Assembly (NCBI GenBank): GCA_963666565.1
Contig: OY762911.1
Coordinates: 4,352,001-4,416,000, forward strand
Direction: 5' to 3'
DNA: 64,000 nt
Source: Thermoanaerobaculia bacterium
GTDB lineage: Bacteria > Acidobacteriota > Thermoanaerobaculia > Multivoradales > Multivoraceae
Shown in pieces: positions 31,701-47,782 of the stretch. The notes beneath the pieces are model-generated. The model made no database searches, was not told the origin of the DNA, and saw only the letters and a program-made list of their open reading frames with translations. The translations under genes and the position numbers were made by a program. Within the stretch, counting starts at the first letter, position 1. The number at the start of each line of letters is the position of its first letter.

Positions 31701-33264
31701 TGGCATTCAGCTTGCCGCCTGCAACCTGACACTCGGCGCGCCGTCGGTGGACTATGCACGGATGAACCTGCACACGATGCAGCACGGGCCTCAGGACGAC
31801 GGGACCGTGCGGGCAGGGTCGCTGGAGATCTTGAGGCAGCGCGGAGACGGCCTCCAGCCGACCCTCTTCCAGATGGCGTCGAAGCTCCAGGGAACGGACG
31901 CACTAGGCGCAAGGTGGGAGGCGGACGAGACCGGCAACGACTTCCCTCTCAACGACGTCGACCTGGTGATCATGAACCCGCCGTTCACCGCGAACGACAA
32001 GCGCGGCCAGAAGTTCACGGGCGACGCCAAGAAGCGGATGCAGGAACGCGAGCTGCAGATCCGCGACGGGCTGTCGAACCGCGACGAGGGAGCCGGCGCC
32101 GTCATCAACACGAACAGCATCCGCACGTTCTTCACGCCGCTCGCGGATCAGTTGCTGCGAGAGGAGCGCAGCGTAATCGCCAAGGTGCTCCCGGCGACCG
32201 CCTGCATTGGCGCCTCCGGGGAATCGGAGCGGCGCTTCCTTGCCGAGCGCTTCCACATCGAGCGCATCATCACCTCGCACGACCCGAAGCGCATCAACTT
32301 CTCCGAGAACACGGGCATCCACGAGTCCTTGCTCATCTGTCGACGGCGGAACGGCAGCACGGACGCCGCGCCGACCGAGTTCGTGTCGCTCCGTCGTATG
32401 CCGGCTTCGGCCAAGGAAGCGATCAAAGCGGCGGACGCCATCGCGGCCGGCAGCGAGGCCTGGGGCAGCCGGACCTTCTGGCCCGCAGAACGAATCCAAG
32501 CCGGCGACTGGACGCCGGTCCAATGGTACGACGGCTCCTTGGCCGAAGCGGTCAGGCAGATCGAGGACTCGCCCCAACTCGAACCGCTGTCGGCGCGCCA
32601 CGACGTAGGGCCGGCAGCTCAGCGGATCCGCGACGCCTTTCGGCAGTGCGACCCCAGCGCCGCTGGCGCTGTACCCGGTTTCCACTCCGTGAGCAGTCAA
32701 GTGCACCGGACAATTCGAGGTAAGCACGATGTCTGGTACGAACCGAAGCCCGGCAAGGCCAGTCTGGCCGCCAAGTACCTGGCGCGTCGGAATCGCCTGC
32801 TTCTCCCCATGCGATTCCGAACCACCAACGGCCGGCTCACGGCACTCTGGACCCCAACACCCTCATTCGGGACCTGGGTTCCCGCCGCGACCGAGAACGA
32901 ACGCATCGCCAAGGCGCTTGCCGTCTGGTGTAACTCCACACCGGTGCGCCTGATGCTCCTGAATCGACGTTCCCGCACCCTCACATACCCAGCGTGGTCG
33001 CTGGAACATCTGCGCGAGATCGGCATACCCAAACCCGACAGCTTCGCCTGGAACGCCCTCGCCGCCGCCTACGCCAAGGCTTCCGACGAAGAACTTCTGC
33101 CAATGAGCCAAGCGGACGTATGCCCGGCGCGTAGAATCCTCGACCGCGCCGCCGCTCTCGCGCTCGAAGTCGACGAAGCGGAAATCGCCGACTGGCGACG
33201 AAGACTCGCTAGAGAGCCAACCGTCAGCAACGAGCCGGCAGACAGATCGGGAGGCGATGGGTGA
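28789..33264 (+). CDS. Type ISP-like restriction-modification enzyme (Mrr-type nuclease, SF2 helicase, N6-adenine MTase, target recognition region)
   Basis: DIGVDLVA...IQCK nuclease; ACGTGKT, DEAH, MTATPR, QAVGRVMR helicase; DPACGTG and NPPF methyltransferase motifs. Confidence 0.9.
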   Translation: MSHSLPSRDQPNRHRPEQVTTPQELPVQTAIDLGAPPPDQDLDWGDLTAGELLRRIRSTSRTEAEKGQWFENLFAQLARNEPEFELEGVWRWAQWPERKRLTGLSGQDIGVDLVALHRDGTWIAIQCKCYASHHRVTKADVQSFLAGSQQKIFGLRWIVTTSRWGRTAENLIQETNIRRIDFRNYRDRRITATEVERPVREPWRLQREAIEDALQGLEHHDRGRLIMACGTGKTFTALRIAERFVPDGEAILFLAPTIALVSQARREWLTHTTRPLSSLVVCSDPYAGGRNEQEDIRISELECPVISNPEEIAAKLKSATHTKVVFCTYQSLMRVTEAQREHGAAPFALTIADEAHRTTGVLNRPREKVDFQLVHDEERLLTRKRLYMTATPRIYTRKSKRRLAKREIEVVDMSDEATYGPQFHRLRFKTAVDDGKLSDYRVVVLGVDRSRVTPGLRSRLEGLAEGDRKSQPTLNDITRVLGVSLAINGLSEGKGIERPDRLPRTMAYANSIKRSKWFAAALMDPQVKAATTRRLHGEERAWSVEAEHLDASASALDRSQALRRLSSAGGDGTLRIVCNVKLFTEGVDVPSLNAVAFLDPRDSQVDVVQAVGRVMRRAEDKKFGYIVVPVVVQPGMDVADALRNSPEGYHTLGKVLRALQAHDERLHEDIARFVQVYEPKPEPNAPGDPRDDPAGLFDDLELEPADEGIFAHVAAASGLGQPGKLIADEIAWAVQRAAEIFQNEEVEGPLADALDLPADNEQARKAARTIAALLLCNACLMHRRLRDVPEMKMLPGLGRVGATDDPSSVLKASWSTILDLDYKPIFEPALAALNALPANEGIRSALRGLSECADNLADSLNDLGYDHAGPLYHRILGSAKSDGAFYTNNISALLLARLALDETFVDWTDPEAVAKLRIIDPACGTGTLLMAALRTIKARMREGASLGEGSDEPLHRTLVEDVLCGLDINRHGIQLAACNLTLGAPSVDYARMNLHTMQHGPQDDGTVRAGSLEILRQRGDGLQPTLFQMASKLQGTDALGARWEADETGNDFPLNDVDLVIMNPPFTANDKRGQKFTGDAKKRMQERELQIRDGLSNRDEGAGAVINTNSIRTFFTPLADQLLREERSVIAKVLPATACIGASGESERRFLAERFHIERIITSHDPKRINFSENTGIHESLLICRRRNGSTDAAPTEFVSLRRMPASAKEAIKAADAIAAGSEAWGSRTFWPAERIQAGDWTPVQWYDGSLAEAVRQIEDSPQLEPLSARHDVGPAAQRIRDAFRQCDPSAAGAVPGFHSVSSQVHRTIRGKHDVWYEPKPGKASLAAKYLARRNRLLLPMRFRTTNGRLTALWTPTPSFGTWVPAATENERIAKALAVWCNSTPVRLMLLNRRSRTLTYPAWSLEHLREIGIPKPDSFAWNALAAAYAKASDEELLPMSQADVCPARRILDRAAALALEVDEAEIADWRRRLAREPTVSNEPADRSGGDG

Positions 33265-33616: not shown

Positions 33617-35330
33617 ATGACCAACCTGCTAACAGTCCCTGACAAGGCCGGACGCGCCATCGTCGAAGACGGGGCCATGCTCGCCTGTCCACTGCTGGCC
33701 ACCGACAGCTTCATACGGTCCTGCGCCCATCGGGGCCTGGCGATTGACCGCCACCGCCTCCTTCGTCTGGAACGGCTAGGTTTCTTCGCTCCCGTGTTCC
33801 GAGTGAGGACCCCTCGGAAGGACGCCGCCCTCTTCGATATCCCACCAAGGAAGGGCAACAACTGGTTCACCAAGAGATGGGCGTACGATACGACTGCGGT
33901 ACCTCGGCGCCATGACGTGCCGTCAGACACCGATCGGACCTGCGAAGGCTACTACTCCGTCTTTCACGTCGACTACCTCCACCTCGTGTTGGCCGAACTA
34001 AGCCCGCAGATCCAGCTCGACGCGCACCTTGACCGGAAACCAGGCGAGCCGACCGACTGGCAGAAGGCGGGCGACCGCTGGATGCAACACGCCGAAAACA
34101 GCGCCGCAAGCCTGCGCGATCATCAGTACCGCCGTGCAGTCGCCCTGCTCTGCCAGCACGTATCGAACCGGTACTTCCCTCAAACTCAGACCGACATGCG
34201 CACTCTGCAGATTCGCCGAGTCTGTTGCTCCGACGCTTGGATCGCGGTCGATGGCCGTGACTGGGACTGGCATCGGGAAGTGCGGAGTTGGGATCCGAAG
34301 AGGATCCAGAACCTCTACGGCCTTACTCCGCAGAAGCTGCGCCACGCATACAGGGGTCCAGTTGCGATCCAATAGAGCATTGGTATCAACTCATTCAGTT
34401 CATCTCCGTCCATGAGCGCGGGAAGCTCAAGGGTGCCGCTCGCCGCGCGGCTACCGTCCGCGAAGGCGCCCAAATGCTGCGCCTCCTGTACACCGATCTA
34501 TACGGGAAGGACCTCCCGCACCCCAACGAGGTTTCCAGGACCATCATCACTCCCTTACCCGAGGTAGAAGTCCGGAAGGACACGCGCCGGCATCTGGAAT
34601 TCGTCGCCAACCGTTTTGGAGTGAATCCCCAACCTCGACTCTGCCTCCTCGTCGAAGGTGCGAGCGAGCAAGCTGCCGTGACACGCATATTCGAGGCGTG
34701 CTACGGCGCACATCCCGGCCGATACGGCATCGAGATCATCCCGTTGGGCGGCGTGAGCGTCGCCACCGGAAACAGGAAGGACGACCGCTTCAGCGCCGTC
34801 ATCCGTCTAGTCGACTATCTGCACCATCACCAGACCTTTGCGCTCCTCATTCTTGACAACGAGGGCTATGCCATGCGAGGAAACTGGAGAAGGCGCTGCG
34901 GGATAGAAGGTCGATTCACGGCGACCGGCGATACGTGACCCGGCGCGACTACATCCGACTCTGGAAAGAGTCCTTCGAGTTCGACAACTTCTCCTGCACG
35001 GAGATCGCCGCCGCGCTCACGAAGCTGGCGTCGGGCACTGCGACGTTCGACGTAAGGGACGTTGCCGGTGCGCGGAGAGCGAGCCATCCTGGATCGGCGC
35101 TCAAGGCCTTGTACCTGAGGAAGGCCAACGACGAACTGGACAAGGTCCGCTTGGCCGAGGCGCTCGTCGACATCATGATGTCACCGCGATCCCGTCGAAA
35201 AACCGAGAACCGCCCCATCGTCAAGGTCCTGGATCGAGTCCAACGCCTCGCGGCCCGAAACCACCTGCCGACGACGCAGCGCGACCGGGACGCCAACCAG
35301 GTGTCCGCGTTTCTCGACAGCACGCGCTGA
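33617..35330 (+). pseudogene. TOPRIM-domain (OLD-family-like) protein broken by two frameshifts
   Basis: Three overlapping ORFs read as one protein with LLVEGASE...IPLGG...LILDNEG TOPRIM motifs. The second shift coincides with an apparent 5-nt insertion (TATGCCATGCG) near 34867-34877. Confidence 0.65.
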
Positions 35331-35615: not shown

Positions 35616-35931
35616 TCATTCGAACAAGTCCGCGTGAGTGCCGGCCCCGGGCGAAGTAGACCGAACCGCTAGGGCCGTCCGTGTCGTCGATACGGTAGAT
35701 CAGCAGGAAGTCGCCACCGATGTGGCACTCCCGGTAGCGTGCCAACGAGCCCTTGAGCGCGTGGTCCCTGCGTTCGGGAGGGAGCGGAGCGTCACGGGCG
35801 ATCAGTAGGAGCATCACCCCTTTCAGCCGCCGCATATCGTAGCGGCCGGAGCGGGAGAGCCGCCGCCAGTCCCTCAGGAACTGTCGCGCGAAGTCGACGC
35901 GGCGCGGCAGTCTGGCCCGCTTACTGGCCGT
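35616..35931 (-). pseudogene. yafQ: YafQ-family mRNA interferase, apparently inactivated
   Basis: DHALKG...RECHIGGDFLLIY is present. The start codon reads ACG, and a +1 shift separates FAR from AGTHADLFE*. Confidence 0.8.
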
Positions 35932-36202
35932 TGGCTTCTTCAAGCTCCGCAAACGCCTCGTCGGCGCTGGCGAACCGCGCGCTGCGGCTCTGCACCATCT
36001 CGTCCACATTTGCCATGGCGCGGCGAGTCTCCGCGTTCGGCACCTTGAGCTCGAGCGGGAAGGCCTGATCGACGGCGATGCGGTGAAACAGCAACCTCAC
36101 GGCCTCCGAAGCCGTCAGCCCCATTGCCGTGAGCGCCGCCGTCGCCTTCTGCTTCATCTCGGTGTCCATGCGGACGTGCAGCATCGAACTCTGTGTCGTC
36201 AT
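35921..36202 (-). CDS. dinJ: RelB/DinJ family antitoxin
   Basis: LHVRMD..MKQKA...L..MGLTASEAVRLL...PLELKVPNAETRRAM; RBS GGAGG. Confidence 0.9.
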   Translation of the reverse strand: MTTQSSMLHVRMDTEMKQKATAALTAMGLTASEAVRLLFHRIAVDQAFPLELKVPNAETRRAMANVDEMVQSRSARFASADEAFAELEEANGQ

Positions 36203-36333
36203 GCGAGCCTCCCGTCTCTCATTTGCGAGACTACTTTCGCACGCTGTCATGCCGCAGTCAAGCCGATGCCCAGTGCAGAAGAATCGGGGATCATCGCCGG
36301 GAATGCGCCTCGCGGGTCAATTGCGGCAACTCC

Positions 36334-36375: not shown

Positions 36376-37452
36376 ATGAGACGCCGAGTCCCCGCAGCCC
36401 TGACTGCCGTCCTCGCCCTGTTGCTCGCCGCGACGGCCCTGACCGCCCAAGGCGAGATCAAGCGCGCCGCCAACGGCAAGCCGGACCTGACCGGCACCTA
36501 CGACGCCGGCACCCTGACGCCGCTCCAGCGGCCCGAGAAGTACGGCGACAACCTTTTCCTGAGCCCCGAGGACGCGGCGAAGATCGAGGCGGACGCGGCC
36601 CAGTACGCGGCCGACCGACATCGGGTTTCCGATCCGAACCGCAAGCCGCCGCCGGTGGGCGGCGACGGGACGACGGGCGGCGCCGGCAACGTCGGCGGCT
36701 ACAACCGGTTTTGGGTCGAAACCGGCACCGAGGCCTTCGCGGTCGACGGCAAGTTCCGCACGTCTATCCTCTTCGACCCTCCGAACGGCCGCATGCCGGA
36801 GATGACCGAGGCCGGCAAGGCACGATCCGCCGAGCGCCGCCGGCTGCGCCGGCCGAACGACGGTTCCGCCTGGTGGCTCGACATCGAGGGCCACGGCCCG
36901 TACGACGGCCCCGAGACGCTGCCGGTGACCGAGCGCTGCATCGTCGGCTTCACCGGCGCCACGCCGACGTTCCCGAGTCTCTACAACAACTTCAAGCGCG
37001 TGGTCCAGACCGAGGATCACGTCATGATCCTGATCGAGATGGTCCACGACGCCCGGATCGTGCGCCTGAACGCCGAGCATCCGAGTCCCGAGGAACGGAA
37101 GTGGCTCGGCCACTCCATCGGCTGGTGGGAAGGCGACTCCCTCGTCATCGACTCGCGGAACTTCCACCCGAAGGCCGTCCTGCGCGGCGCCACCCAGGAA
37201 TCGCACGTGACGGAGCGCCTCACGCTGCAGCCGAACGGCGACATCCTCTACCGGTTCACGATCGAGGATCCGGCGACCTGGGACGTCCCCTGGTCCGGCG
37301 AGTACATCTGGAAGCGGAGCGACGTGGACGTCTACGAGTACGCCTGCCACGAGGGTAACTACTCGATGGGCGGCACCCTGCGCGGCGCGCGGGTGCTCGA
37401 AGCCGACGCGATGGCCGCCAAGGCCGCGAGCACCGGCGCCGGAAGCGACTAG
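36376..37452 (+). CDS. Secreted hypothetical protein, YEYACHEGN family, paralog 1
   Basis: Signal peptide; GKPDLTG, ERC, EMVHDARIV, GWWEGD and YEYACHEGN; RBS GGAGG. Confidence 0.9.
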   Translation: MRRRVPAALTAVLALLLAATALTAQGEIKRAANGKPDLTGTYDAGTLTPLQRPEKYGDNLFLSPEDAAKIEADAAQYAADRHRVSDPNRKPPPVGGDGTTGGAGNVGGYNRFWVETGTEAFAVDGKFRTSILFDPPNGRMPEMTEAGKARSAERRRLRRPNDGSAWWLDIEGHGPYDGPETLPVTERCIVGFTGATPTFPSLYNNFKRVVQTEDHVMILIEMVHDARIVRLNAEHPSPEERKWLGHSIGWWEGDSLVIDSRNFHPKAVLRGATQESHVTERLTLQPNGDILYRFTIEDPATWDVPWSGEYIWKRSDVDVYEYACHEGNYSMGGTLRGARVLEADAMAAKAASTGAGSD

Positions 37453-38125
37453 GGCGGCGGCTCCAGCGGCAGGCGCGGATTCGCCCGGCCTCTGCGCTTC
37501 ATGTGCCGACGACGACCTTCTCCAAGGGTGCAGCCCTCACCAGCCGTCGCGAGCGACGCCCGCCCACCGAACTCCAGCGCATCGCCATCAATAGCGGTCA
37601 AGGTCTCCAGCAACTCGTTGCGGCTCCCTTCCTGGCAGTTCACCCACCCGGCACTTCTTGAATCCAGCCGATCCACGAGTCACCGGCCCGTCTGATGATC
37701 GCGGTGTCCTCCTGCAGCCTCTCCTGCTCGTCTCTCGACGATGTCTGTGATCCGCGGCCGCCCGAAACAACCTGTGCCCGGTAACTCTACTGCCACAGGA
37801 GGCCTCAACCGCCCCCGCCTGTCGCACGCCCACACACCTCCTCTAACGCCCCACGATGGACGCCCGGCCACCCCGGGAGACGCCCTAGTCTGCCGAGCAC
37901 TTCCAGAGCAACCACCCGGAACCTCGCTTCTCGCACCGCGAAGCGCCACAGCGGGCGCAACACTGGCCACCTGTCCAGCCCCACCGCTCGTCTGGACCGG
38001 CCCTCCTTAGCCCGCGCTAGCGAGCCCTCCTAGTCCGTCGCAAAGCTGCAGCGGGGCACTAGAAGAGGTGCCCCGAGTACCTGCTCCGCCTACTCGCCCG
38101 TCCGTCCCCGACCCTCGTCGCCGCA

Positions 38126-38164
38126 AAGCGTGCATGACCGTGTATAGTCGCGTACAAGCGTGCA
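38126..38164 (+). promoter_or_regulatory. Putative promoter/operator of the RHH-MTase operon
   Basis: AAGCGTGCA direct repeats at 38126 and 38156 flank TG-TATAGT (-10-like, 38143-38148). Confidence 0.4.
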
Positions 38165-38198
38165 GCTCGACCGACCTAGGACTACTTGGAGGCGCGAA

Positions 38199-38387
38199 GT
38201 GTCGACCGGCCAACGACTCAATACGACGATCGATCCCCAACTCGCGGAGCGCCTCGACCGTGAGACAAGGGGAAGAAATCCGAGACTGCCGAAGCGCTAC
38301 GTCGTAGAGCTCGCCCTGAAGAGGCTCTTCGACGACTTGGACAGAGGTCAGCTCCGACTGGACCTAACCGGGGGCGTCCATGGCTGA
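38199..38387 (+). CDS. Small ribbon-helix-helix-like regulator
   Basis: RBS GGAGG then GTG. RLNTTIDPQLAERLD...KRYVVELALKRLF shows the alternating beta strand plus two helices pattern; overlaps the MTase start. Confidence 0.65.
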   Translation: MSTGQRLNTTIDPQLAERLDRETRGRNPRLPKRYVVELALKRLFDDLDRGQLRLDLTGGVHG

Positions 38388-39882
38388 GATGCAGAGCCAG
38401 AAGAGACCAGTCATCTCGTTGTTCAGTGGCGCGATGGGGCTGGACCTGGGTCTCGAATCGGCCGGTCTTGACATCGCTGTCGCATTGGAGAGTAGCTCCT
38501 TCCCTGTCGCCACGATCAAACGGAACAGGCCTTTGCTACCCTTGATCGCCAGCCGCATCGAGACCGTTTCGAGCGAAGAGATCCTGACCGCAGCAGGGTT
38601 GGCACCAGGGGAAGCCTTCGCTGTCGTCGGTGGCCCGTCGTGCCAAGTGTTCAGCACCGCCGGCCGTAGACGGTCTTTCGCTGATCCGCGCAGCACGATG
38701 TTCGAGCACTTCGTCCGCGTGGTGCGTGACGCTCGCCCCGAGTTCCTGGTCATGGAAAACGTGCGCGGTTTGCTTTCTGCTGCAGTCCGCCATCGACCTC
38801 TGAAGCAACGGGGTCCCGGCTATCCCCGGCTGACCGAGGACGAGCTCTTGGGCTCCGCGTTCCGCGTGGTCGCAAGGACGCTTCGCGCTCTTGGCTACTA
38901 CTGCGTCTTCGACGTACTCAACGCTGCTGACTACGGTGTGCCTCAGACTCGTCTGCGACTCGTGATCATTGGCAGCCGCGACGGAAGGAGCCTGCGAATG
39001 CCGAAACCGACGCACAGCGTAGAGGGAACACAAGGCTTGGCGACGTGGAGGACGCTTGGTGAAGCTCTGGAGAACCTGAACGAGGACGATCCAGACTACT
39101 ATCCATTCTGCCCTTCCAAGGAACGCTACATGAGGCTCATTCCTGAGGGTGGCAACTGGCGTCAGCTACCAGAAGAACTGAAGCGAGAAGCCCTAGGAAG
39201 CGCCTTCTCCTCATGGGGAGGGCGCTCTGGCTTCTTTCGCCGCCTGTCCCGCGAACGCCCATGCCCAGCACTCACAACGCGGCCCGACAGTAAGGCGACC
39301 GTCTTATGCCACCCAACCGAACTGCGACCGCTCACCGTAGGCGAGTATGCACGGGTACAACAGTTTCCGGAAGACTGGATCTTCGAAGGGTCTGTCCGGA
39401 AGAAGTACGAGCAGCTCGGCAACGCAGTACCTGTCGGCTTAGGCGCAGCGATCGGAGCGGCATTGGTGGACGCCTCTCGTAGCCAGGTCCGCGAAAGCCG
39501 ACTCGGTCGTTTCGAGTCGTTCAACTTGGACCTCCTTGGCAAGCTCTCCAGGCGGCCCAAAACCATCCTGAACCCGCCTCGGATGCGGTCGGACGAGGAC
39601 CAGAGCGCAATCGCGGACTGGCACGGAGATAGCCAGAGGACACGAGAAGACGCCCACGACTACGTCCCGCCTGAACTCGCCAAGCAATTCGACACTCTCA
39701 CCACTCAGAAGCCGCGGCGCTCCAGACGAAGTGCTCGCGTCGCTCCCCACTCTTCGCGCCGAACGGAGGCGGGCAGAGCGCAGCGCCGATCTCCTGAAGG
39801 AACGCTAGGGATCTCCGTCGCCGAACAACGGGGACAATCCACTCAACGAGCTGATCATCATCCTCTCGCAGATGACGACTAG
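38380..39882 (+). CDS. dcm: DNA (cytosine-5)-methyltransferase
   Basis: Motifs I SLFSGAMG, IV GGPSCQ, VI ENV, VIII QTRLR, IX/X RVQQFP...QLGNAVP; C-terminal tail of unclear status. Confidence 0.93.
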   Translation: MAEMQSQKRPVISLFSGAMGLDLGLESAGLDIAVALESSSFPVATIKRNRPLLPLIASRIETVSSEEILTAAGLAPGEAFAVVGGPSCQVFSTAGRRRSFADPRSTMFEHFVRVVRDARPEFLVMENVRGLLSAAVRHRPLKQRGPGYPRLTEDELLGSAFRVVARTLRALGYYCVFDVLNAADYGVPQTRLRLVIIGSRDGRSLRMPKPTHSVEGTQGLATWRTLGEALENLNEDDPDYYPFCPSKERYMRLIPEGGNWRQLPEELKREALGSAFSSWGGRSGFFRRLSRERPCPALTTRPDSKATVLCHPTELRPLTVGEYARVQQFPEDWIFEGSVRKKYEQLGNAVPVGLGAAIGAALVDASRSQVRESRLGRFESFNLDLLGKLSRRPKTILNPPRMRSDEDQSAIADWHGDSQRTREDAHDYVPPELAKQFDTLTTQKPRRSRRSARVAPHSSRRTEAGRAQRRSPEGTLGISVAEQRGQSTQRADHHPLADDD

Positions 39883-40120
39883 CCCGAGTTACCTGCGCGT
39901 CTATACTCGCCTCGAGGCCACGATTCCGCACTGACAGGGCCTCGCGGGCACCTCGGTCACGAACCTCCGGTCGTCCATGGCTGACGCCGGCCTGGCCGCG
40001 CTCAATGCCCTTCGACAAAAGCAAATCGCCGAGCCGCTAGTCGATGACTTGGGCCGAGTGTCTCTAGCCAACCCTCGCCCATTGGGACGATGACACCACG
40101 CTGCGCTACCTAACTGATTG
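39785..40120 (+). pseudogene. Endonuclease III-like (HhH-GPD) domain remnant, probably once fused to the MTase
   Basis: One frame reads ADLLKER*GSPSPNNGDNPLNELIIILSQMTT...RVYTRL...PH*QGLA...MADAGLA...GRVSLA, with two in-frame stops where Tyr and Trp are expected. Confidence 0.65.
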
Positions 40121-40126
40121 AGACCC

Positions 40127-41902
40127 TCATCCAGTCTGTGCCGTTCCCAAGAGGGTAGCCGCTTGGCGTACATCCGCGAGGAACGACTCTCGTGTGATCG
40201 GCACCTCGACCTGATCCCCAAGCAAGCTCTGTGCGGCCTGTTCCTTCCGGGTCAACAGTTCGTACTCGGCAACCTCAAGCGTCCCGTCGCACAGTATTAC
40301 CAAGTACTCTACCTCCCGTTCCTGCCCCCGGCGGTGGATCCGGTCGAGACTCTGGAGATAATGCGCCGCTTGGTTTGAGAGAGACTCATAGATGGCAACG
40401 CGGGCCCGATGCAGCGTCAGGCCAGCGCCGGCGGCGGCTGGGTTACCGACGAAGATCATCGTGTCGTCGTCCTCCTGAAAGCGCCGCACCGCGTCTCGCC
40501 GTGCCTCGATGCCCGTTACCGAACCGTCGTACCTAACGGCGCCATAGCGCGCGAAGCGTCGGCACATCGCGGCGACAGACGCCCGATAGAACGACCATAT
40601 CACTACCTTCTCACGTTCGCGGCCGACGAGCTGTCCGAGGAGTTCGTCCAACACCGACAGCTTCGCGGGCGTCTCACAGTAGGTGTCCACCACGCTTCGT
40701 GGATTCGAGCAGATTTGAAGGAGGCTCGCGCGACGCGCCAAGAAACTCGCTCGTCCCGTGACGAAACCCGTGTCGTCTACCGCCTGAACGTCCGCAATCA
40801 AGTCATTCAGTGTCCTGCGATACAGATGAGCCTGTTCCGTCGCCATCGGCACGAGGATGCGTTGGAACCGCTTGATCGGCAGGTCAGGGAGCACGTCTGA
40901 CTTCAGGTGTCGGAGAAAGAGCCCACGCTCCTTGATCGCGGATCGCACAACAGGGGCCGCCTGCGCTCGGTCCGCAGGCACGTCAACGCCCTCGAAGCAA
41001 AAGCCGAAGTCGACGAAGCTAAACTGTTGGACGAGGTCGGACGGAGAGTTCGGCGCCGGAGTACCACAGAGCACGTAGGCACGGCCGGCCCATTCCCGCA
41101 GGCGCCGGAGAGTCCGTGTGCGCTTGGCGTCGAGCGACTTGATGAAGAACGACTCGTCGATTGCGAGCACGATCCGCCCAGGTCGTGTGCGCAAGAAGGA
41201 CCGGAGCTCCGCTTCCATACTCACCGCCGCCTCGAAGTTGGTCACGAAGATGTCGGAGCCCTCCGCTAGCAACCGACGCCTCTCCCGCTCCGAGCCGGTC
41301 AATACTGACGTACGATAGAGGCCCCTTCGGAATCGGGTCAGGTCTCTGGGCCATTCGCCAATCATGCTCTTCGGCGCAACAATGATCGCCGCGTCGGCTT
41401 GGTCCCGCTCCACGAGCAGGTCGAAGGCAAAGATGAACGTCACCGTCTTGCCGGCTCCCTGCTCGTCAAAGACGCAAAGGCCGGGACTCTGCGGTATAGC
41501 CATCGCGGCAACGTTCACAATCTGGTGGTCGTCCAAGACTCCATGACCGTCACTGTCCGGGATCATCCGCGCGGCCAGAGCGGCCCCGCCCCGCCGGATC
41601 CGATGCAATGCCTTGAACACGTCAGCATGGACAGACGCGACATGCCGGCGATTCTCGACGAAGCGCCGGGACTCGGAACTCCAGCACAACTCAATCTCCG
41701 ATCCTAACTCGGCGAGGCGCCCAACGAGTGGTGCGGGAACGCTGACACCTTCGGCGGAACGCCTGATGCCGACTCCGTCAGTGCCAAGTCCCACCCTAAG
41801 CGCCCTCAAGAGAGCATTCCCCTCACCACGTCCCGGCACCAGGAAGAGGGCATCGAGAGTCTCCGCGCTCCTGACATCGACTCGCAGACGGCTGGGCCGC
41901 AT
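40127..41902 (-). CDS. SNF2-family helicase/ATPase
   Basis: DEQGAGKT, APKS, DES, CGTPAPN, GAGLTL and QSLDRIHRRGQ. ATG at 41902 overlaps the upstream stop (TGATG). Confidence 0.88.
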   Translation of the reverse strand: MRPSRLRVDVRSAETLDALFLVPGRGEGNALLRALRVGLGTDGVGIRRSAEGVSVPAPLVGRLAELGSEIELCWSSESRRFVENRRHVASVHADVFKALHRIRRGGAALAARMIPDSDGHGVLDDHQIVNVAAMAIPQSPGLCVFDEQGAGKTVTFIFAFDLLVERDQADAAIIVAPKSMIGEWPRDLTRFRRGLYRTSVLTGSERERRRLLAEGSDIFVTNFEAAVSMEAELRSFLRTRPGRIVLAIDESFFIKSLDAKRTRTLRRLREWAGRAYVLCGTPAPNSPSDLVQQFSFVDFGFCFEGVDVPADRAQAAPVVRSAIKERGLFLRHLKSDVLPDLPIKRFQRILVPMATEQAHLYRRTLNDLIADVQAVDDTGFVTGRASFLARRASLLQICSNPRSVVDTYCETPAKLSVLDELLGQLVGREREKVVIWSFYRASVAAMCRRFARYGAVRYDGSVTGIEARRDAVRRFQEDDDTMIFVGNPAAAGAGLTLHRARVAIYESLSNQAAHYLQSLDRIHRRGQEREVEYLVILCDGTLEVAEYELLTRKEQAAQSLLGDQVEVPITRESFLADVRQAATLLGTAQTG

Positions 41903-43482
41903 CAACGCGTCTCTGGGGTATCCGCCGTGCTCAGATAGGTCTCGACATGCCTCAAGACTCTCCTTAGCCGTGTCAGGTTCTCTTCGGTGACCGAACCAGA
42001 CTCGCGCCCGTCGAACGCCTTGACCGGCAGGCCGAGGAACCACTCAGTGAAGACGCGGATCCTCGTGTTCGCACCAGTCTGCCGCCGCTCCGCGCGAGCT
42101 GCTCGCGCCAAGCTGATCGCGTTGTCGACTTCTTCCTGGCCCGCGTCCACGTCTGACTCGTCACGGGCCTTGCGGAGGAGTCCGACAGCGTCCTCGTTCT
42201 CGTATACATACTTGAGATCCCGAATCCTCTGCCAACTCTGGAACTTGCCGTCATAGAGCAGATCGAAGACAAGATGCTTGAAGCTGTCTTCTTGGTTCAG
42301 CGACCAGTTCACTCCACCTGCACTCTTGCCCTTGTTCAACTCGTCGAAGTACTGAAACTTGTCGGACGCCCGGTGCTTCACGGCGAACTTGTCTTTCGCG
42401 CAGTCGATGACCTGATAGTCTTCGAACTCTCGCGCGAGTCCTACCATGTTGATGTACCGAGACACCTCATTGGTCGACAGTGCGAACTTCCTTGCGATGT
42501 CACGCCTAATCTCCCTCTGGCGTACGACCGTCGGGTTCGCCCTAGGCTCGAGCGCCAGCAAGGCCTCCCACTGCTCATGGACCTTCTGGGCCTTTACGTA
42601 CTCAGGCCAGTCCTGCTTGTAGTCGGGTTCGAAGTTCAGCGACACGATCACTGCCTCGCGATCCCGTGCGGTCGCGTGTTCCGTAAGTTGCCAGACCTTC
42701 AACCACTCCGCCCGTCGCTTCTCCTCGACGGTGAACTCACCTTTGCCGTCCTCCAGAATATGGTAACAGGCCGTAACCCTACGGTTCCCGTCCAGGAGCG
42801 TACCGTCCAAGTCGATGATTGGGGCTTTGCGAACACCGTTGACCGCTATACTCTTCGCCAGAGAACGGATGGCGAACTGATCTGCTTCGTCGATCCCTGG
42901 CAAGGGCATTGTTCCCTGCATGATCGCGACCAGCTCCTCGGCGTCCGGTCCGCGCCCGTACTTCTGGTGGAACTGATTCAGATGAATGTGGAGCCGCTCG
43001 TTCTCGTCCCAGAGTTGGATGTCCCGTGCGCGAACGAACCCTTCCTGCACAGCGACAGGACGTTCGTGGAACACGGGTTTGGGTCGCACCGGAGCAGGGT
43101 CGATCCCATCGAATGACCGCAAGTGCAGGCGCTTCGTGCCTCTTGACCCAGATCCAGGCGATGCCTTCGGTGTGGCGGGCCGGGTGAGCGCGCTAGTCGG
43201 TCGCCCGGCCCCTGTCAACCGCGCTCGCGCCTGCTCGACCTTCGCGACGAAGGCTGCAACGTCGCCATCAAGCAGCCTTGCCGTCTCGGCGTCGCCTCGT
43301 CTCACGGCGCCCTCGCGAACGACCTCCACCACCTTGGTGAGGAGGGCGCGCGCCTCATCGACCGAGAGCGGGTTCGCCAACCCCTCAAGCAGAGTGTCCT
43401 TGATCGACGGGCCAACGTCGGCGGACATGGAGTCTGCCGCATGTAGTAGCTCCGTGAGTGCCTTCTTGACTTCCTCGTTCAT
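41902..43482 (-). CDS. ParB/Srx N-terminal domain protein with HTH
   Basis: LAKSIAVNGVRKAPII...LLDGNRR (GxxR motif), KQDW..Y.KA, and HTH-like IARKFALSTNEVSRYI; RBS GGAGG. Confidence 0.8.
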   Translation of the reverse strand: MNEEVKKALTELLHAADSMSADVGPSIKDTLLEGLANPLSVDEARALLTKVVEVVREGAVRRGDAETARLLDGDVAAFVAKVEQARARLTGAGRPTSALTRPATPKASPGSGSRGTKRLHLRSFDGIDPAPVRPKPVFHERPVAVQEGFVRARDIQLWDENERLHIHLNQFHQKYGRGPDAEELVAIMQGTMPLPGIDEADQFAIRSLAKSIAVNGVRKAPIIDLDGTLLDGNRRVTACYHILEDGKGEFTVEEKRRAEWLKVWQLTEHATARDREAVIVSLNFEPDYKQDWPEYVKAQKVHEQWEALLALEPRANPTVVRQREIRRDIARKFALSTNEVSRYINMVGLAREFEDYQVIDCAKDKFAVKHRASDKFQYFDELNKGKSAGGVNWSLNQEDSFKHLVFDLLYDGKFQSWQRIRDLKYVYENEDAVGLLRKARDESDVDAGQEEVDNAISLARAARAERRQTGANTRIRVFTEWFLGLPVKAFDGRESGSVTEENLTRLRRVLRHVETYLSTADTPETR

Positions 43483-43493
43483 CGTTCCACCTC

Positions 43494-44174
43494 CTAGTTC
43501 GGGTCTGTGTCTGTGTCAGACAGCTCCACTAACGCCGCGACACCTTCCTGGTCTGCCAATCGGCGGAGTCGCTTCAAGCCCCGTGAGACTAGAGTCCGAG
43601 CAGCGGCAGCCGAGATGTCGAGCTGTTCAGCGATATCCGCCGCAGGTAAGTCGGGAAGCTCGTTCTCTACTGCATCGATCAGAATCTCCATCACATCGAC
43701 CACCTGCCCATAGCCAATCCTGGGAAGAAGCTCCCGGGCCATCCGTATCGCCTCCTTTCGGCGCTCCTCCCTCTTGCGACGGCGCTCTTCCGCCTCGCGT
43801 CGTGTTTCCGCTGAGTCCGGCGCTCCCGGAAGAGTCACAACATCGGCATCCTGTCGCCGAGAGTAGTCAGACCGCCACCTGTCGTCTGCGTGGTTCCTAG
43901 CCACCTTCCACAGCCATGCACCGAGGCTACGAATCTGCCGACCCTCGAACGCTGCGGCGCAAGCAGCATCCACAGCTTGTGCTATACACTCATCTACCTC
44001 GTGTGCTGGAAGGGTATCGCCCCACTGCTTCTGCAGCCTTCGTGTCAGACCGTCGAGGTAGCGACTCACGGCCAGAGCTTCGAGCATCGTAACCGGATCG
44101 CCCCGATTGACCGCCTCTTCCGCTTGCTCCAGCAGCAGCGCCGCGTCGTCGACTCTGGCCTTACTTGCACTCAC
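43494..44174 (-). CDS. ECF-type sigma-70 family factor
   Basis: Region 2-like GAWLWKVARNHADDRWR and region 4.2-like AADIAEQLDISAAAARTLVSRGLKRLR. Confidence 0.8.
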   Translation of the reverse strand: MSASKARVDDAALLLEQAEEAVNRGDPVTMLEALAVSRYLDGLTRRLQKQWGDTLPAHEVDECIAQAVDAACAAAFEGRQIRSLGAWLWKVARNHADDRWRSDYSRRQDADVVTLPGAPDSAETRREAEERRRKREERRKEAIRMARELLPRIGYGQVVDVMEILIDAVENELPDLPAADIAEQLDISAAAARTLVSRGLKRLRRLADQEGVAALVELSDTDTDPN

Positions 44175-44340
44175 GCTGCACCCATCGGCACCCGAACATG
44201 CCCTGCTCGTAGTATCGCCATGTCCAATAGTCCCAGTGCGAAACAGGTCTCCTCGGCTGTCCTACCCACCATAGCCAGAGACTCCAGATCCGCAGGGCTT
44301 GGCGGGTCTTCCCGGCACACCGTAAGGCGACGGAGGGAAG
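44171..44340 (-). pseudogene. 3' remnant of an unknown gene upstream of the sigma factor, truncated at the island edge
   Basis: Open frame ...LESLAMVGRTAEETCFALGLLDMAILRAGHVRVPMGAA*, whose stop overlaps the sigma GTG (GTGA). Confidence 0.45.
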
Positions 44341-44341
44341 A

Positions 44342-45424
44342 GTGATGGGAATGCGAGTCCCCGCAGCCTTGACCGCCATCCTCGCCCTGCTGCTCGCCGC
44401 GCCGGCCCTGACCGCCGAAGGCGAGATCAAGCGCGCCGCCAACGGCAAGCCGGACCTGACCGGCACCTACGACGCCGGCACCCTGACGCCGCTCCAGCGG
44501 CCCGAGAAGTACGGCGAGAACCTCTTCCTGAGCCCGGAGGACGCGGCGAAGATCGAGGCGGACGCGGCCAAGTACGCCGCCGACCGGCACCAAGTCTCCG
44601 ATCCGAACCGCAAACCGCCGCCGGTCGGCGGCGACGGGACGACGGGCGGCGCCGGCAACGTCGGCGGCTACAACCGGTTCTGGGTCGAGACCGGGACCGA
44701 GGCGTTCGCGGTCGACGGCAAGTTCCGCACCTCGATCCTCTTCGATCCTCCGAACGGACGCATCCCGGAGATGACGGAGGCCGGCCAAGCCCGGGCCGCC
44801 GAGCGCCGCCGGCTGCGGCGGCCGAACGACGGCTCCGCCTGGTGGCTCGACATCGAGGGCCACGGCCCGTACGACGGCCCGGAGACGCTGCCGGTGACGG
44901 AGCGCTGCATCGTCGGCTTCACCGGCGCCACGCCGACCTTCCCGAGCCTCTACAACAACTTCAAGCGCGTAGTGCAGACCGAAGACCACGTCATGATCCT
45001 GATCGAGATGGTCCACGACGCCCGCATCGTGCGCCTGAACGCGGAGCATCCGAGCCCCGAGGAGCGCAAGTGGCTGGGCCACTCGATCGGCTGGTGGGAA
45101 GGCGACACCCTCGTCATCGACTCGCGGAACTTCCACCCGAAGGCCGTCCTGCGCGGCGCCACGCAGGAGTCCCACGTCACGGAGCGCCTCACGCTACAGC
45201 CGGACGGGAACATCCTCTACCGGTTCACGATCGAGGATCCGGCGACCTGGGACGTCCCCTGGTCCGGCGAGTACATCTGGAAGCGGAGCGCCGTGGACGT
45301 CTACGAGTACGCCTGCCACGAGGGCAACTACTCGATGGGCGGCACGCTCCGCGGCGCGCGTGTGCTCGAAGCCGACGCCATGGCCGCCGAGGCGGCGAGC
45401 ACCGGCGCCGGCAGCGGCGACTGA
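44342..45424 (+). CDS. Secreted hypothetical protein, paralog 2 (near-identical to paralog 1)
   Basis: Differs from 36376-37452 by only a few residues. The exact start (44342, 44345 or 44351) is uncertain. Confidence 0.9.
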   Translation: MMGMRVPAALTAILALLLAAPALTAEGEIKRAANGKPDLTGTYDAGTLTPLQRPEKYGENLFLSPEDAAKIEADAAKYAADRHQVSDPNRKPPPVGGDGTTGGAGNVGGYNRFWVETGTEAFAVDGKFRTSILFDPPNGRIPEMTEAGQARAAERRRLRRPNDGSAWWLDIEGHGPYDGPETLPVTERCIVGFTGATPTFPSLYNNFKRVVQTEDHVMILIEMVHDARIVRLNAEHPSPEERKWLGHSIGWWEGDTLVIDSRNFHPKAVLRGATQESHVTERLTLQPDGNILYRFTIEDPATWDVPWSGEYIWKRSAVDVYEYACHEGNYSMGGTLRGARVLEADAMAAEAASTGAGSGD

Positions 45425-45447
45425 TCGAAACCACGGAGGACAGAGAA

Positions 45448-46512
45448 TTGAGAATCCCCGCGGCCCTGATCGCCATCGTCCCGCTTCTGCTCGCGGCGCC
45501 CGGGGCCGGCGCCCAGGACGACATCAAGCGCATGCCCGACGGCCGGCCCGACCTGCACGGCAACTACGACGCGGCCACGCTGACGCCGCTCCAGCGGCCC
45601 GAGGAGTACGGCGAGAACCTGTTTCTCACCCCGGACGAGGCCGAGAAGATCAAGGTCGACGCGGCCAAGAGCCGGGCCGACCGCCACCAGATCAGCGACC
45701 CCGACCGCGAGCCCCCGCCGGTCGGCGGCGACGGGTCGGGCGGCGGCGCCGGCAACGTCGGCGGCTACAACTACTTCTGGCTCGACTTCGGCACCGAGGC
45801 ATTCTCGGTGGACGGCAAGTTCCGCACCTCGATCATCGTCGACCCGCCGAACGGCCGCATGCCGGAGATGACCGAGCCGGCGAAGGCGAGAAGGGCGGCG
45901 CGCGACAAGCTGCGGCGGCCGAACGACGGCTCAGCCTGGTGGCTCGACATCGACGGCCCCGGCCCCTACGACGGCCCCGAGTCGCTGCCGATCACGGAAC
46001 GCTGCATCGTCGGCTTCACCGGCGCCACGCCCACGCTCCCGAGCGCCTACAACAACTACAAGCGCGTGGTCCAGACCGAAGACCACGTGATGATCCTGAT
46101 CGAGATGAACCACGACGCCCGCATCGTCCGCCTGAACGACGAGCACCCGAGCCCCGAAGAGCGCAAGTGGCTCGGCGACTCGGTCGGCTGGTGGGAGGGC
46201 GACACGCTCGTCATCGACTCCGTCAACTTCCACCCGAAGGCGTTCCTGCGCGGATCGACCCAGGAGCTGCACGTCACGGAGCGCCTGACCCTCCAGCCGA
46301 CCGGCGACATCCTCTACCGGTTCACGATGGACGACCCGGCCACATGGGAAACGCCCTGGTCCGGCGAGTACATCTGGCGGAACCGCCCGGAACTCGTGTA
46401 CGAGTACGCCTGCCACGAGGGGAACTACGCGATGGGCAACACCCTGCGCGGCGCGCGGATTCTGGAGGCCGACGCCGCGGCGGAGGCGGCCAGCACCGGC
46501 GGCGGCCACTAG
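45448..46512 (+). CDS. Secreted hypothetical protein, paralog 3
   Basis: RBS GGAGG then TTG at 45448; same family motifs. Confidence 0.88.
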   Translation: MRIPAALIAIVPLLLAAPGAGAQDDIKRMPDGRPDLHGNYDAATLTPLQRPEEYGENLFLTPDEAEKIKVDAAKSRADRHQISDPDREPPPVGGDGSGGGAGNVGGYNYFWLDFGTEAFSVDGKFRTSIIVDPPNGRMPEMTEPAKARRAARDKLRRPNDGSAWWLDIDGPGPYDGPESLPITERCIVGFTGATPTLPSAYNNYKRVVQTEDHVMILIEMNHDARIVRLNDEHPSPEERKWLGDSVGWWEGDTLVIDSVNFHPKAFLRGSTQELHVTERLTLQPTGDILYRFTMDDPATWETPWSGEYIWRNRPELVYEYACHEGNYAMGNTLRGARILEADAAAEAASTGGGH

Positions 46513-46661: not shown

Positions 46662-46711
46662 GGGGACTCACGCTACACTCCCGGCATCCCAGTCGAACAG
46701 GAGGACGCAGA

Positions 46712-47782
46712 ATGAGACTCCCAGTCCCCGCCGCCTTGGCCACCATGCTCGCCCTGCTGCTCGCGGCGCCCGCGCTCGCGGCCGAAGGCGAGATCAAGCG
46801 GGCCGCCAACGGCAAGCCCGACCTGACCGGCACCTACGACGCCGCCACGCTGACGCCGCTGCAGCGGCCGGAGGAGTACGGCGAGAACCTCTACCTGACG
46901 CCGGAGGAGGCCGAGAAGATCGCGACCGACGCGGCGAAGGCCCGCGCCGACCGGCACCAGGTCTCCGACCCGAACCGCGAGGCGCCGCCGGAGGGCGGCG
47001 ACGGCTCGCCAGGCGCGGCGGGCAACGTCGGCGGCTACAACAGCTTCTGGCTCGACCGCGGCACGGACACGTTCGCGGTGGACGGCAAATTCCGCACCTC
47101 GATCATCGTCGACCCGCCGAACGGCCGCATGCCGGAGACCACCGAGGCCGCCAAGGCGCGGTTCGCCGAGCGCGCCAAGCTGCGCCGCCCGAACGAGGGC
47201 GTCGCGTGGTGGCTCGAACTCGACGGCCCGGGCCCTTACGACGGCCCCGAGTCGCTGCCGATCAGCGAGCGTTGCATCCTCGGCTTCACCGGCGCCACGC
47301 CGACCTTCCCGAGCGGCTACAACAACTACAAGCGGGTCGTGCAGACCGAGGACCACATCATGATCCTGATCGAGATGGTCCACGACGCCCGGATCGTCCG
47401 CCTGAACGACGAGCACCCGAGCCCGGAGGAGCGGCGCTGGCTGGGCGACTCGATCGGCTGGTGGGAAGGCGACACCCTCGTCATCGACTCGGTCCACTTC
47501 CGGCCCGACGGGTTCCTGCGCGGCGCGACGAAGGACCTCCACGTCACGGAGCGGCTGACGCTCCAGCCCGACGGCAACATCCTCTACCGGTTCACGATGA
47601 ACGACCCGGCCACATGGGAAGCCCCGTGGTCCGGCGAGTACATCTGGAAGCGCGACCAGGAACGCGTCTACGAGTACGCCTGCCACGAGGGCAACTACTC
47701 GATGGGCGGCACGCTCCGGGGCGCCCGGATCCTCGAAGACGACTGGCGCGCCGGAAAGGCGGCCAGCACCGGCGGCGAGTAA
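46712..47782 (+). CDS. Secreted hypothetical protein, paralog 4
   Basis: RBS AGGAGG then ATG at 46712; same family motifs. Confidence 0.9.
   Translation: MRLPVPAALATMLALLLAAPALAAEGEIKRAANGKPDLTGTYDAATLTPLQRPEEYGENLYLTPEEAEKIATDAAKARADRHQVSDPNREAPPEGGDGSPGAAGNVGGYNSFWLDRGTDTFAVDGKFRTSIIVDPPNGRMPETTEAAKARFAERAKLRRPNEGVAWWLELDGPGPYDGPESLPISERCILGFTGATPTFPSGYNNYKRVVQTEDHIMILIEMVHDARIVRLNDEHPSPEERRWLGDSIGWWEGDTLVIDSVHFRPDGFLRGATKDLHVTERLTLQPDGNILYRFTMNDPATWEAPWSGEYIWKRDQERVYEYACHEGNYSMGGTLRGARILEDDWRAGKAASTGGE

Follow-up and report, generated by a model that had tools for sequence, protein, structure and literature searches.

An AbiR-like cassette of sigma-like, ParB-like and SNF2 genes facing a C5 methylase, without its probable nuclease, in a defence island of a Thermoanaerobaculia bacterium

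A stretch of 64,000 nucleotides from a Thermoanaerobaculia bacterium (assembly GCA_963666565.1, contig OY762911.1, positions 4,352,001 to 4,416,000 of the forward strand), referred to here as the window, carries a gene cassette composed of two convergent operons. The plus-strand operon comprises a small regulator-like gene and a C5 cytosine DNA methyltransferase (C5 methylase), followed by the remnant of a repair gene, and the minus-strand operon comprises a trio encoding a sigma-like protein, a ParB-like protein and a SNF2-family ATPase. A previous interpretation made from the letters alone (the sequence-only reading) had proposed a DNA-modification or defence system that matched no named one. 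This last point has to be revised, since the three-protein architecture is that of AbiR, a named system that depends on a methylase (PMC13064643; 10.1101/2024.02.29.582594), and the cassette is probably best explained as a horizontally acquired, methylase-protected defence system of the AbiR type whose nuclease has been lost in this copy. New features are the broad distribution of the variant, the possession of a methylase, a small regulator and a repair module of its own, and a predicted complex between the sigma-like and ParB-like proteins. The comparisons described below refer to 15 loci, namely the window, 12 genome loci and two contigs from viral collections (window, L001-L012, L017 and L019); a third viral contig, L018, was left out as the same DNA as L010.

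The first gene of the minus-strand operon (43494..44174, -) encodes a protein of 226 aa displaying region-2-like and region-4-like segments of the extracytoplasmic function (ECF) type. It was matched by PF08281 (E 2.3e-5, 24.4 bits, cut-off 25.7) and TIGR02937 (E 4.2e-7, 29.7 bits, cut-off 42.9), its best NCBIfam E-value was obtained with NF041236 (E 1.8e-7, 31 bits, cut-off 100), and its family profile retrieved SigJ, SigH, SigW and SigE from the PDB over both regions at E 0.02-0.3. The region 2 and region 4 family thresholds of ECF (group 4) membership were not reached. The ECF-like sigma factor of the sequence-only reading thus stands as far as the matches to both regions go, all of which fall below the curated cut-offs; the assignment is consistent yet weak, and the protein is designated here as sigma-like rather than as a sigma factor.

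The second gene (41902..43482, -), separated from the first by an 11-nt gap, encodes the ParB-like protein of 526 aa. Its structure model, with a mean predicted local distance difference test score (pLDDT) of 74.4, is organised in an N-terminal four-helix domain (residues 1-91), a ParB N-domain plus helix-turn-helix (HTH) part (~130-430) and a C-terminal helical part. All the top Foldseek matches of this model were ParB, KorB, Noc or pNOB8 ParB (E 2e-3, probability 1.0). In the VIA structure comparison, the Myxococcus xanthus ParB-CDP complex reached Z 10.4 (root-mean-square deviation 4.0 A, 188/194 residues aligned), the B. subtilis ParB-CDP complex 10.2, KorB with CTP-gamma-S 9.1, Noc 8.9 and pNOB8 ParB (5K5D) 8.2, and these structural matches spanned residues 132-430. 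The protein presents the arrangement of the ParB/Srx superfamily, in which an N-terminal fold with a G-x-x-R motif is followed by an HTH, and the G-N-R-R form of this motif was invariant in 23/23 ParB-like sequences. At the sequence level, it gave a weak PHROG match ('ParB-like', E 3.8e-5), no match in Pfam, ParB models included, and nothing meaningful when its profile was compared with PDB sequences, and a search of the ESM Atlas recovered unnamed clusters only, one of them with ParB_N on 21% of its members. The ParB/Srx and HTH domains that had been read from the letters are therefore borne out at the level of the fold (VIA Z 10.4) and not by Pfam. According to the model, the protein looks like a nucleoside triphosphate-switched DNA clamp, and the idea of a nucleotide-switched clamp working with a translocase fits the best matches, which are CTP- or CDP-bound forms of ParB, KorB and Noc.

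The third gene encodes the SNF2-family ATPase. Its ATG shares one base with the stop codon of the ParB-like gene (TGATG), so the gene is placed at 40127..41902 (-) and its product at 591 aa, including an N-terminal domain of ~135 aa without assigned fold. A GTG-started ORF of 638 aa was discarded as an over-extension, most relatives aligning only from its residues 47-56. The ATPase matched PF00176 (E 1.4e-20) and PF00271 (E 2.2e-8), both above the cut-offs, and its ATPase motifs were invariant over 11 sequences. Its best PHROG was a large phage 'DNA helicase' family (E 8.7e-75), and PADLOC returned ZorD (7e-30), DpdE (2e-26) and DrmD (1e-15), along with BrxH models. No PD...(D/E)xK pattern was found in the N-terminal ~135 aa in the 11-sequence alignment. 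The operon as first proposed is retained in its sigma-like, 526-aa ParB-like and SNF2 genes, with both the 11-nt gap and the TGATG overlap in place. It also included a truncated open reading frame (ORF) located 5′ of the sigma-like gene (44171-45175 or 44161-44466, -). This ORF is antisense to a plus-strand gene (44342-45424) that is conserved, with congener orthologues 93-94% identical, and it is therefore probably spurious, which leaves the GTGA overlap without meaning.

In fuller relatives, the minus-strand operon extends further. A gene coding for 145-165 aa begins at the SNF2 stop codon, with overlap, in 9/15 loci, and belongs to a family of 122 detectable members, all of them unnamed, with invariant P-D and G-(E/D)-A-K motifs. 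The model of its product (pLDDT 87; predicted template modelling score 0.78) follows an alpha-beta-beta-beta-alpha-beta order with the motifs on strands 2 and 3, a topology that is the same as that of PD-(D/E)xK nucleases. Weak matches to SdaI (E 0.19) and to REase_II of PADLOC (E 0.032) were obtained, and Foldseek gave no clear match for the model. Considering its motifs and predicted topology, this gene probably encodes a PD-(D/E)xK-type nuclease. It is absent from the window, and the same query found none elsewhere in the 4.79-Mb genome. The earlier remark that no restriction nuclease is visible is accordingly right for this copy, but not for the nine loci that carry the gene after SNF2. 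The only longer protein found with the nuclease domain was P0408 (377 aa, on an ENA contig of 17,591 nt), which also contains Helicase_C; it may represent a natural SNF2-nuclease fusion or a gene-call artefact, such as a miscalled SNF2 C-terminus. The longest contig of one ParB-like cluster is also 17,591 nt long.

The plus-strand operon, convergent with the trio, is preceded by a cluster of four CGTRYA boxes (38129..38164, +) at a distance of 35-70 nt from the small regulator gene. The window has 57 matches to this motif on both strands, of which four crowd into these 36 nt, and TGYGCA-like repeated boxes were seen upstream of the same gene in other aligned loci, by eye and with no statistic attached. 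The CGTRYA boxes likely form the operator or promoter of the regulator-methylase operon, judging from their position and crowding. The small gene (38199..38387, +) overlaps the methylase start by 8 nt and encodes a conserved protein of 62 aa with a pattern resembling ribbon-helix-helix (RHH) proteins. Its start was set at GTG 38199, and not at 38160, by alignment to the ATG starts of relatives. By tblastn, it was found in 12/15 loci, each time directly upstream of the methylase, and 20 columns were invariant over nine sequences. Nothing was retrieved for its fold in Pfam, NCBIfam, PADLOC or the PDB, the comparison of the RHH-like profile with the PDB included. The protein is presumed to be a transcriptional regulator, for which the residue pattern suggests the RHH fold.

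The methylase gene (38380..39882, +) is assigned to the C5 family by PF00145 (E 8.2e-51) and TIGR00675 (170.6 bits), above cut-off, by a match to M.HaeIII (E 9e-27) and by the motifs FSG..G, GPSCQ, ENV, QTRLR and GNAVP in its translation, among which are the catalytic Pro-Cys and ENV motifs. In this way, of the RHH regulator and C5 methylase on which the trio was said to converge, the methylase is confirmed (PF00145, E 8e-51) and the RHH fold remains a matter of pattern. Codon-position variability over seven intact loci indicated that the conserved part of the enzyme stops near residue 449 (~39726), and the last ~51 codons are a read-through into a dead glycosylase gene, the original stop codon having been lost. 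The dead gene is an HhH-GPD glycosylase pseudogene (39614..40066, +) with 55% identity to residues 2-153 of its L001 orthologue (tblastn, E 1e-34). Only about its first 150 codons are left, the 3′ half having been deleted, and they are interrupted by two in-frame stops (TAG 39806-39808 and TGA 39932-39934). Relative to L001, the remnant shows a nonsynonymous divergence (dN) of 0.31 and a ratio of nonsynonymous to synonymous divergence (dN/dS) of 0.43, against dN 0.02-0.15 and dN/dS ~0.2 between intact orthologues. A fusion of HhH-GPD to the methylase, as formerly suggested, is ruled out, since the remnant is that of a separate gene in a different frame with two stops of its own. Intact orthologues match PF00730 (E 1e-11 to 9e-13), and a gene for the repair of T:G mismatches lies 3′ of the methylase in 10/15 loci, being HhH-GPD in nine and Vsr in one. 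Such enzymes are the usual partners of C5 methylases, mending the deamination of 5-methylcytosine, and T:G mismatch repair is presumably the role of the HhH-GPD glycosylase here. With the nuclease missing and the glycosylase dead, the suspicion that the copy is partial proved right.

The cohesion of the cassette was evident from its distribution. The sigma-like, ParB-like and SNF2 genes were found in the same order beside a C5 methylase in 15/15 loci, the co-occurrence that had been put forward as a check of the proposal; the methylase is convergent with the trio in 12 loci and lies upstream on the same strand in three. The loci come from at least four phyla, the hosts of the 12 genome loci belonging, by their record titles, to Acidobacteriota, Pseudomonadota, Thermodesulfobacteriota and Nitrospirota. 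More than 580 relatives of the ParB-like protein, at 45-88% identity, all lack a Pfam domain, and those with names were "hypothetical", with the exception of one "predicted DNA-binding protein". A profile search recovered 299 representative proteins at E <= 0.001, and the names of the shorter relatives were equally uninformative. All genes of the cassette are under purifying selection (dN/dS 0.11-0.29; nuclease 0.27-0.44). The ParB-like gene is single-copy in this genome and was found in 0/40 related genomes, 24 of them congeneric and 16 from the same order. Mobility genes usually adjoin the cassette, with tyrosine integrases in three loci, large serine recombinases in four and a DDE transposase in one; in a fourth locus, L002, integrase-like ORFs were indicated by clustering. 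The cassette is horizontally acquired and rides on mobile DNA.

A complex between the sigma-like and ParB-like proteins was predicted by co-folding. The pair reached an ipSAE of 0.69, the best of three controls scoring 0.00, and thereby passed a mark that was reached by 116/157 solved complexes and by 2/215 mismatched pairs, counts that apply only roughly here, our own alignments having been used for the pair. Three runs shared at least 75% of the contacts, with partner pLDDT of at least 70. In the predicted interface, residues 4-90 of the ParB-like protein, within its N-terminal helical domain, lie against residues 4-90 (region-2-like) and 138-207 (region-4-like) of the sigma-like protein, so that this domain is predicted to grip both halves of its partner, as anti-sigma domains hold both halves of a sigma factor. 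The presence of the domain and that of the sigma-like neighbour go together. All 15 long forms of the ParB-like protein have both, whereas the shorter relatives (365-435 aa) lack the domain, and no sigma-like gene was found in three independent loci of the short form (L014, L020 and L021/L022). The 273-aa protein encoded upstream in L021 showed no similarity to the sigma-like profile.

The genomic setting of the cassette is that of a strain-specific island. The window as a whole has a guanine-plus-cytosine (GC) content of ~70%, and the content drops to 0.59-0.63 over 38-44 kb, compared with ~0.68-0.72 in the flanks. CTAG occurs at 16 sites in the 6.9-kb island (2.32/kb) and at 19 sites in the other 57.1 kb (0.33/kb), a density seven times that of the rest of the window, and the lower-GC, CTAG-rich island of the sequence-only reading was thereby reproduced. 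Assembly of two public runs from a single study yielded contigs that spanned the whole stretch with zero differences; these runs may include the source sample. The island is bounded by a direct repeat of 1.06 kb, a duplicated flanking gene with its left copy at 36385..37447 (+) and its right copy at 44354-45416. The two copies are 93.6% identical over 1063 nt, and both map onto one single gene in two congeners. This arrangement, a flanking gene duplicated here and single in congeners, fits the integration of a circular molecule through a single homologous crossover, as we infer it. The repeat gene is part of a four-copy tandem array (also 45442-46510 and 46667-47781), and its family has 25 matches in this genome; the encoded protein has no match in Pfam, and its N-terminus resembles a signal peptide when the translation is judged by eye.

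Synteny with the two congeners extends up to 27.1 kb and resumes from 44.35 kb, and the intervening region of 27.1-44.35 kb is represented by ~2 kb at the same place in a congener. Upstream of the cassette, this region carries a Type ISP-like restriction-modification (R-M) enzyme encoded as a single chain of 1491 aa with Mrr_cat, ResIII/helicase and N6_Mtase domains (28789-33264, +), an OLD-like TOPRIM fragment (34288-34938, +) and a RelB antitoxin (35921-36250, -); for this part alone (27.1-36.3 kb), the congener has ~2 kb instead. Because of these upstream defence genes and of the replacement by ~2 kb in the congener, the 27-44 kb region is considered a strain-specific defence island that includes the cassette; the defence setting supposed from the letters is thus upheld by both the island and the association with mobile DNA. 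Integrase or phage genes were not found in the island of the window, and the integrases of related loci gave zero matches when searched against the window. Scans of the island ORFs with Pfam, NCBIfam, PADLOC and PHROG gave no ParA, DUF1998, PLD or PglZ match, as had been noted before.

The noncoding parts of the island were scanned as well. A segment of about 670 nt (37453-38128) that separates the left repeat from the operator-like boxes holds no convincing ORF, and searches of it for integrase remnants, Rfam families and tRNAs gave nothing. The 167 nt between the start of the sigma-like gene and the divergent flanking gene (44175..44341) presumably carry the promoter of the minus-strand operon, considering their position. 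A consensus scan for sigma-70-type promoters over 37400-44400 gave 0 sites, terminator-like sites were fewer than in shuffled sequence, and a tblastx conservation map was unusably noisy at this GC content. In a run labelled as another organism (X5, from a second study), several 151-nt contigs identical to parts of 38160-39700 were observed at low depth, the run containing nothing of the cassette beyond these regulator-methylase parts. Among RNA data sets, none was listed as containing the stretch.

The system to which this gene set corresponds most closely is AbiR of the Lactococcus lactis plasmid pKR223. According to the AbiR section of a review (PMC13064643), it consists of a sigma70-like protein (AbiRa), a ParB-like protein (AbiRb), which the authors matched to PDB entry 5K5D, and AbiRc, in which a restriction-nuclease-like N-terminal domain is joined to a SNF2 ATPase. 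The same section states that AbiR protects against phages, lowers phage DNA replication, requires the LlaKR2I methylase and is toxic without it, and that a three-protein complex is predicted with confidence; described in 2000, the system still had an unknown mechanism in this 2026 review. A preprint (10.1101/2024.02.29.582594) classes AbiRc as SF2_SNF2, alongside SNF2 helicases from further defence systems, and both sources indicate that AbiR is named and tracked by DefenseFinder. The likeness, compared by published description, lies in the same three-protein design, in a SNF2 ATPase linked to a restriction-nuclease-like part and in the tie to a DNA methylase. Among the components, the ParB-like one is recognised in the window by its structural matches (VIA Z 10.4 for ParB-CDP), including Z 8.2 for 5K5D, the very entry to which AbiRb was matched in the review (PMC13064643), and the SNF2 one by PF00176 and PF00271 above their cut-offs. 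Likewise, a complex is predicted for the AbiR proteins as given there, and the sigma-like/ParB-like pair passes here. The methylase dependence of AbiR has its counterpart here in linkage only, a C5 methylase adjoining the trio in 15/15 loci. M.LlaKR2I is likewise taken by us to be a C5 enzyme.

The cassette also differs from AbiR in several respects. The nuclease is encoded by a separate gene for ~145-165 aa after SNF2, missing in this copy, instead of forming an N-terminal domain. The methylase is dedicated to the cassette and is accompanied by a small regulator of its own and by a gene for T:G repair, whereas AbiR relies on the methylase of an adjacent R-M system. The cassette is found in Gram-negative and acidobacterial hosts, and the sigma-like protein has 226 aa, compared with the 364 residues of AbiRa aligned in the review (PMC13064643, AbiR section). 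A tblastn search of plasmids with the ParB-like protein, a short relative and SNF2 returned no Lactococcus record, and two Lactobacillales plasmid matches of SNF2 were set aside, having unrelated neighbours and no ParB-like match in those two records. Literature searches for this gene set gave no description of the cassette variant and retrieved only the AbiR review, a SAR11 paper, which mentions AbiRb/c-like genes, and a Hachiman preprint; the passages of a BREX paper (PMC12839542) dealt with other matters.

A mechanism in two modules can be envisaged for the AbiR-type cassette. In the plus-strand module, the RHH-like regulator would probably act on the four CGTRYA boxes, the C5 methylase would mark the host's own DNA, and HhH-GPD or Vsr, in fuller relatives, would mend the deamination damage that methylation entails. 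In the minus-strand module, the sigma-like protein would be held by the N-terminal helical domain of the ParB-like clamp, which would work with the SNF2 translocase and, in fuller relatives, the nuclease. Most likely, the sigma-like/ParB-like complex would recognise DNA lacking the methyl mark of the cassette, nucleotide binding would close the clamp, SNF2 would translocate and the nuclease would cut; where the nuclease is missing, the complex may instead obstruct replication. From its gene content, the copy in the window presumably retains DNA methylation, and binding or obstruction of DNA may also persist, but it could not cut DNA with the family's own nuclease.

Several observations weigh against this interpretation. 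The sigma-like protein stays under every curated cut-off, the score of its complex may partly mirror a likeness to solved sigma/anti-sigma complexes, and the RHH fold and the operator boxes are both inferred. In VIA, restriction nucleases (Z 5.8-6.4) stood level with unrelated alpha/beta folds for the nuclease model, for which the top Z was 7.2. PADLOC-DB 2.0.0, a library whose AbiR content is uncertain, gave no match for the sigma-like and ParB-like proteins and no AbiR match for SNF2; the SNF2 and methylase genes gave matches at domain level only. Moreover, the nuclease is missing from 6/15 loci, which may mean that decay is frequent or that cutting is not the central activity. Decay in this very copy would leave an orphan methylase as the only part that still matters, with the trio reduced to inert passengers drifting towards pseudogenes. 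The missing nuclease, not found elsewhere in the genome with the same query, the dead glycosylase and the lost methylase stop would all fit a remnant of this kind. In L007, the ORF at the nuclease position, which we read as a transposase fragment, fits a repeated loss of a toxic component. However, the five other ORFs of the window (~1,850 codons) contain no stop or frameshift and show dN/dS of 0.11-0.17 against L001, while the adjacent remnant has accumulated two stops in ~150 codons and about twice the dN of intact orthologues. For the trio, dN/dS against L001 (0.14-0.17) is no higher than between complete loci, and the six loci without nuclease keep the trio intact. Pairwise dN/dS averages over the whole history, and this evidence against decay is suggestive only; even so, the intact trio, the low dN/dS and the nuclease-less loci taken together lean towards a function kept without the nuclease, and we hold a decaying remnant to be rather unlikely. 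A retained function could also take another form, in which the cassette is a methylation-gated sigma/anti-sigma switch of immunity. The four-helix domain of the clamp would hold the ECF-like sigma by both halves; on unmarked DNA, clamp and SNF2 would engage, the sigma would be released or repositioned, and RNA polymerase would be redirected or recruited to foreign DNA, the nuclease being optional and the nuclease-less copies functional. Such a switch, if true, would explain the need of AbiR for a sigma-like protein, although we consider it unlikely.

The remaining explanations were judged against the same body of evidence. The cassette could serve a mobile element or phage, protecting or establishing its DNA, or could stabilise the island as an addiction module. 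It travels on integrative elements, a distant version lies between phage terminase and portal genes, the best PHROG of SNF2 is a phage helicase family, and the methylase-dependent toxicity of AbiR, as the review describes it (PMC13064643), would be expected of an addiction module too. Yet defence systems are commonly carried by such elements, the island of the window has no integrase or phage genes, AbiR protects against phages (same section of the review), and the combination of a self-marking methylase, a dedicated nuclease and T:G repair follows the logic of restriction, which makes a service to the element improbable. A module of epigenetic regulation, in which a true ECF sigma and the methylase reset the transcription of the host, the ParB-like and SNF2 proteins serve as chromatin-like cofactors and immunity plays no role, would draw on the region-2-like and region-4-like segments, on transcription-regulating ParB relatives such as KorB among the structural matches, and on a weaker SNF2 match to a 'pilus expression-regulating Snf2 family helicase' of NCBIfam (96.8 bits, cut-off 1100). 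Its patchy presence across phyla, the failure to find the ParB-like gene in any of the 40 relatives, the position in a defence island, the nuclease and T:G repair of most loci and the AbiR precedent speak against it so clearly that we regard it as very improbable. That the locus represents part of, or a variation on, another named helicase-methylase system (DISARM, Dpd, Zorya, Druantia, BREX and the like) can hardly be credited. PADLOC did match the methylase to DrmMII and DruM and the SNF2 protein to ZorD, DpdE, DrmD and BrxH, but these matches are generic and of domain level, neither the island nor the portion conserved across the 15 loci yielded any of their signature genes, and Dpd needs a transglycosylase that is absent here. 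To our knowledge, sigma-like and ParB-like partners belong to the core set of none of these systems, apart from the ParB-like DpdB.

Other known systems share single parts of the design. The CTP-switch clamps ParB/Spo0J, KorB and Noc are the best structural matches of the ParB-like protein in their nucleotide-binding and HTH domains (Z 8.3-10.4), the best fits being with CDP- or CTP-bound states, and the arginine-rich G-x-x-R is invariant in the ParB-like family. The latter differs in lacking a ParA partner and a Pfam ParB match, in its extra four-helix domain and in its C-terminus, and its nucleotide binding is predicted. A ParABS system is not indicated, given that a search for ParA-like ORFs, which covered the island and the genes conserved among the 15 loci and did not extend to parS, found none. 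In Type III-E CRISPR systems, partner proteins hold a sigma factor until the system fires. The cassette resembles the CASP-sigma arrangement of these systems in placing an ECF-like sigma in a defence context, and NF041236 gave the best NCBIfam E-value of the sigma-like protein; however, the 31 bits of this match fall far short of the family cut-off (100), the cassette has neither CRISPR nor protease genes, and the holder would be the ParB-like protein. DISARM and Dpd combine a SNF2-type ATPase with a DNA-modifying enzyme, as reflected in the domain-level PADLOC matches to DrmD, DrmMII and DpdE, but their other partners differ, no DrmA, DrmB, DrmC or transglycosylase having been found here; for DISARM, the DrmA helicase, DrmB (DUF1998) and DrmC (PLD) were looked for among the island ORFs. 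The succession of a methylase and Vsr (1/15) or HhH-GPD (9/15) recalls Dcm-Vsr, from which it differs in forming part of a more extensive defence cassette and in the dead repair gene of this copy.

The AbiR-type design of sigma-like, ParB-like and SNF2 proteins with a protecting methylase thus spans distant phyla while remaining compact and strongly conserved. It offers natural versions with and without the nuclease, an invariant nucleotide-binding motif of ParB type and a predicted sigma-binding domain, genetic handles that could help explain the part played in immunity by a ParB-type clamp and a sigma-like protein. In the genome studied here, it amounts to a partly decayed defence cassette within a strain-specific defence island.

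More distant relatives with the short ParB-like form were met in other settings. On a Bradyrhizobium plasmid (NZ_CP064694.1; L014, 3295-8365), a more distant ParB-like and SNF2 pair without methylase adjoins genes whose annotations read radical SAM, DGQHR-domain, ATP-binding and PIN-like. Different DNA-modification systems may draw on the ParB-like/SNF2 pair as a common module. The viral contigs L021 (5838-12028) and L022 carry a distant cassette that is flanked, on a phage contig, by the gene for the large terminase and the portal gene and is composed of a methylase (29% identity), the unrelated 273-aa protein mentioned above, a short ParB-like protein (24%), SNF2 (41%) and a 423-aa unknown protein. 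On a further viral contig (L020, 1-4891), a short ParB-like gene (27%) is placed between a Vsr gene and an ATPase matching MADS mad8 and HerA, which is followed by an amino-methyltransferase.

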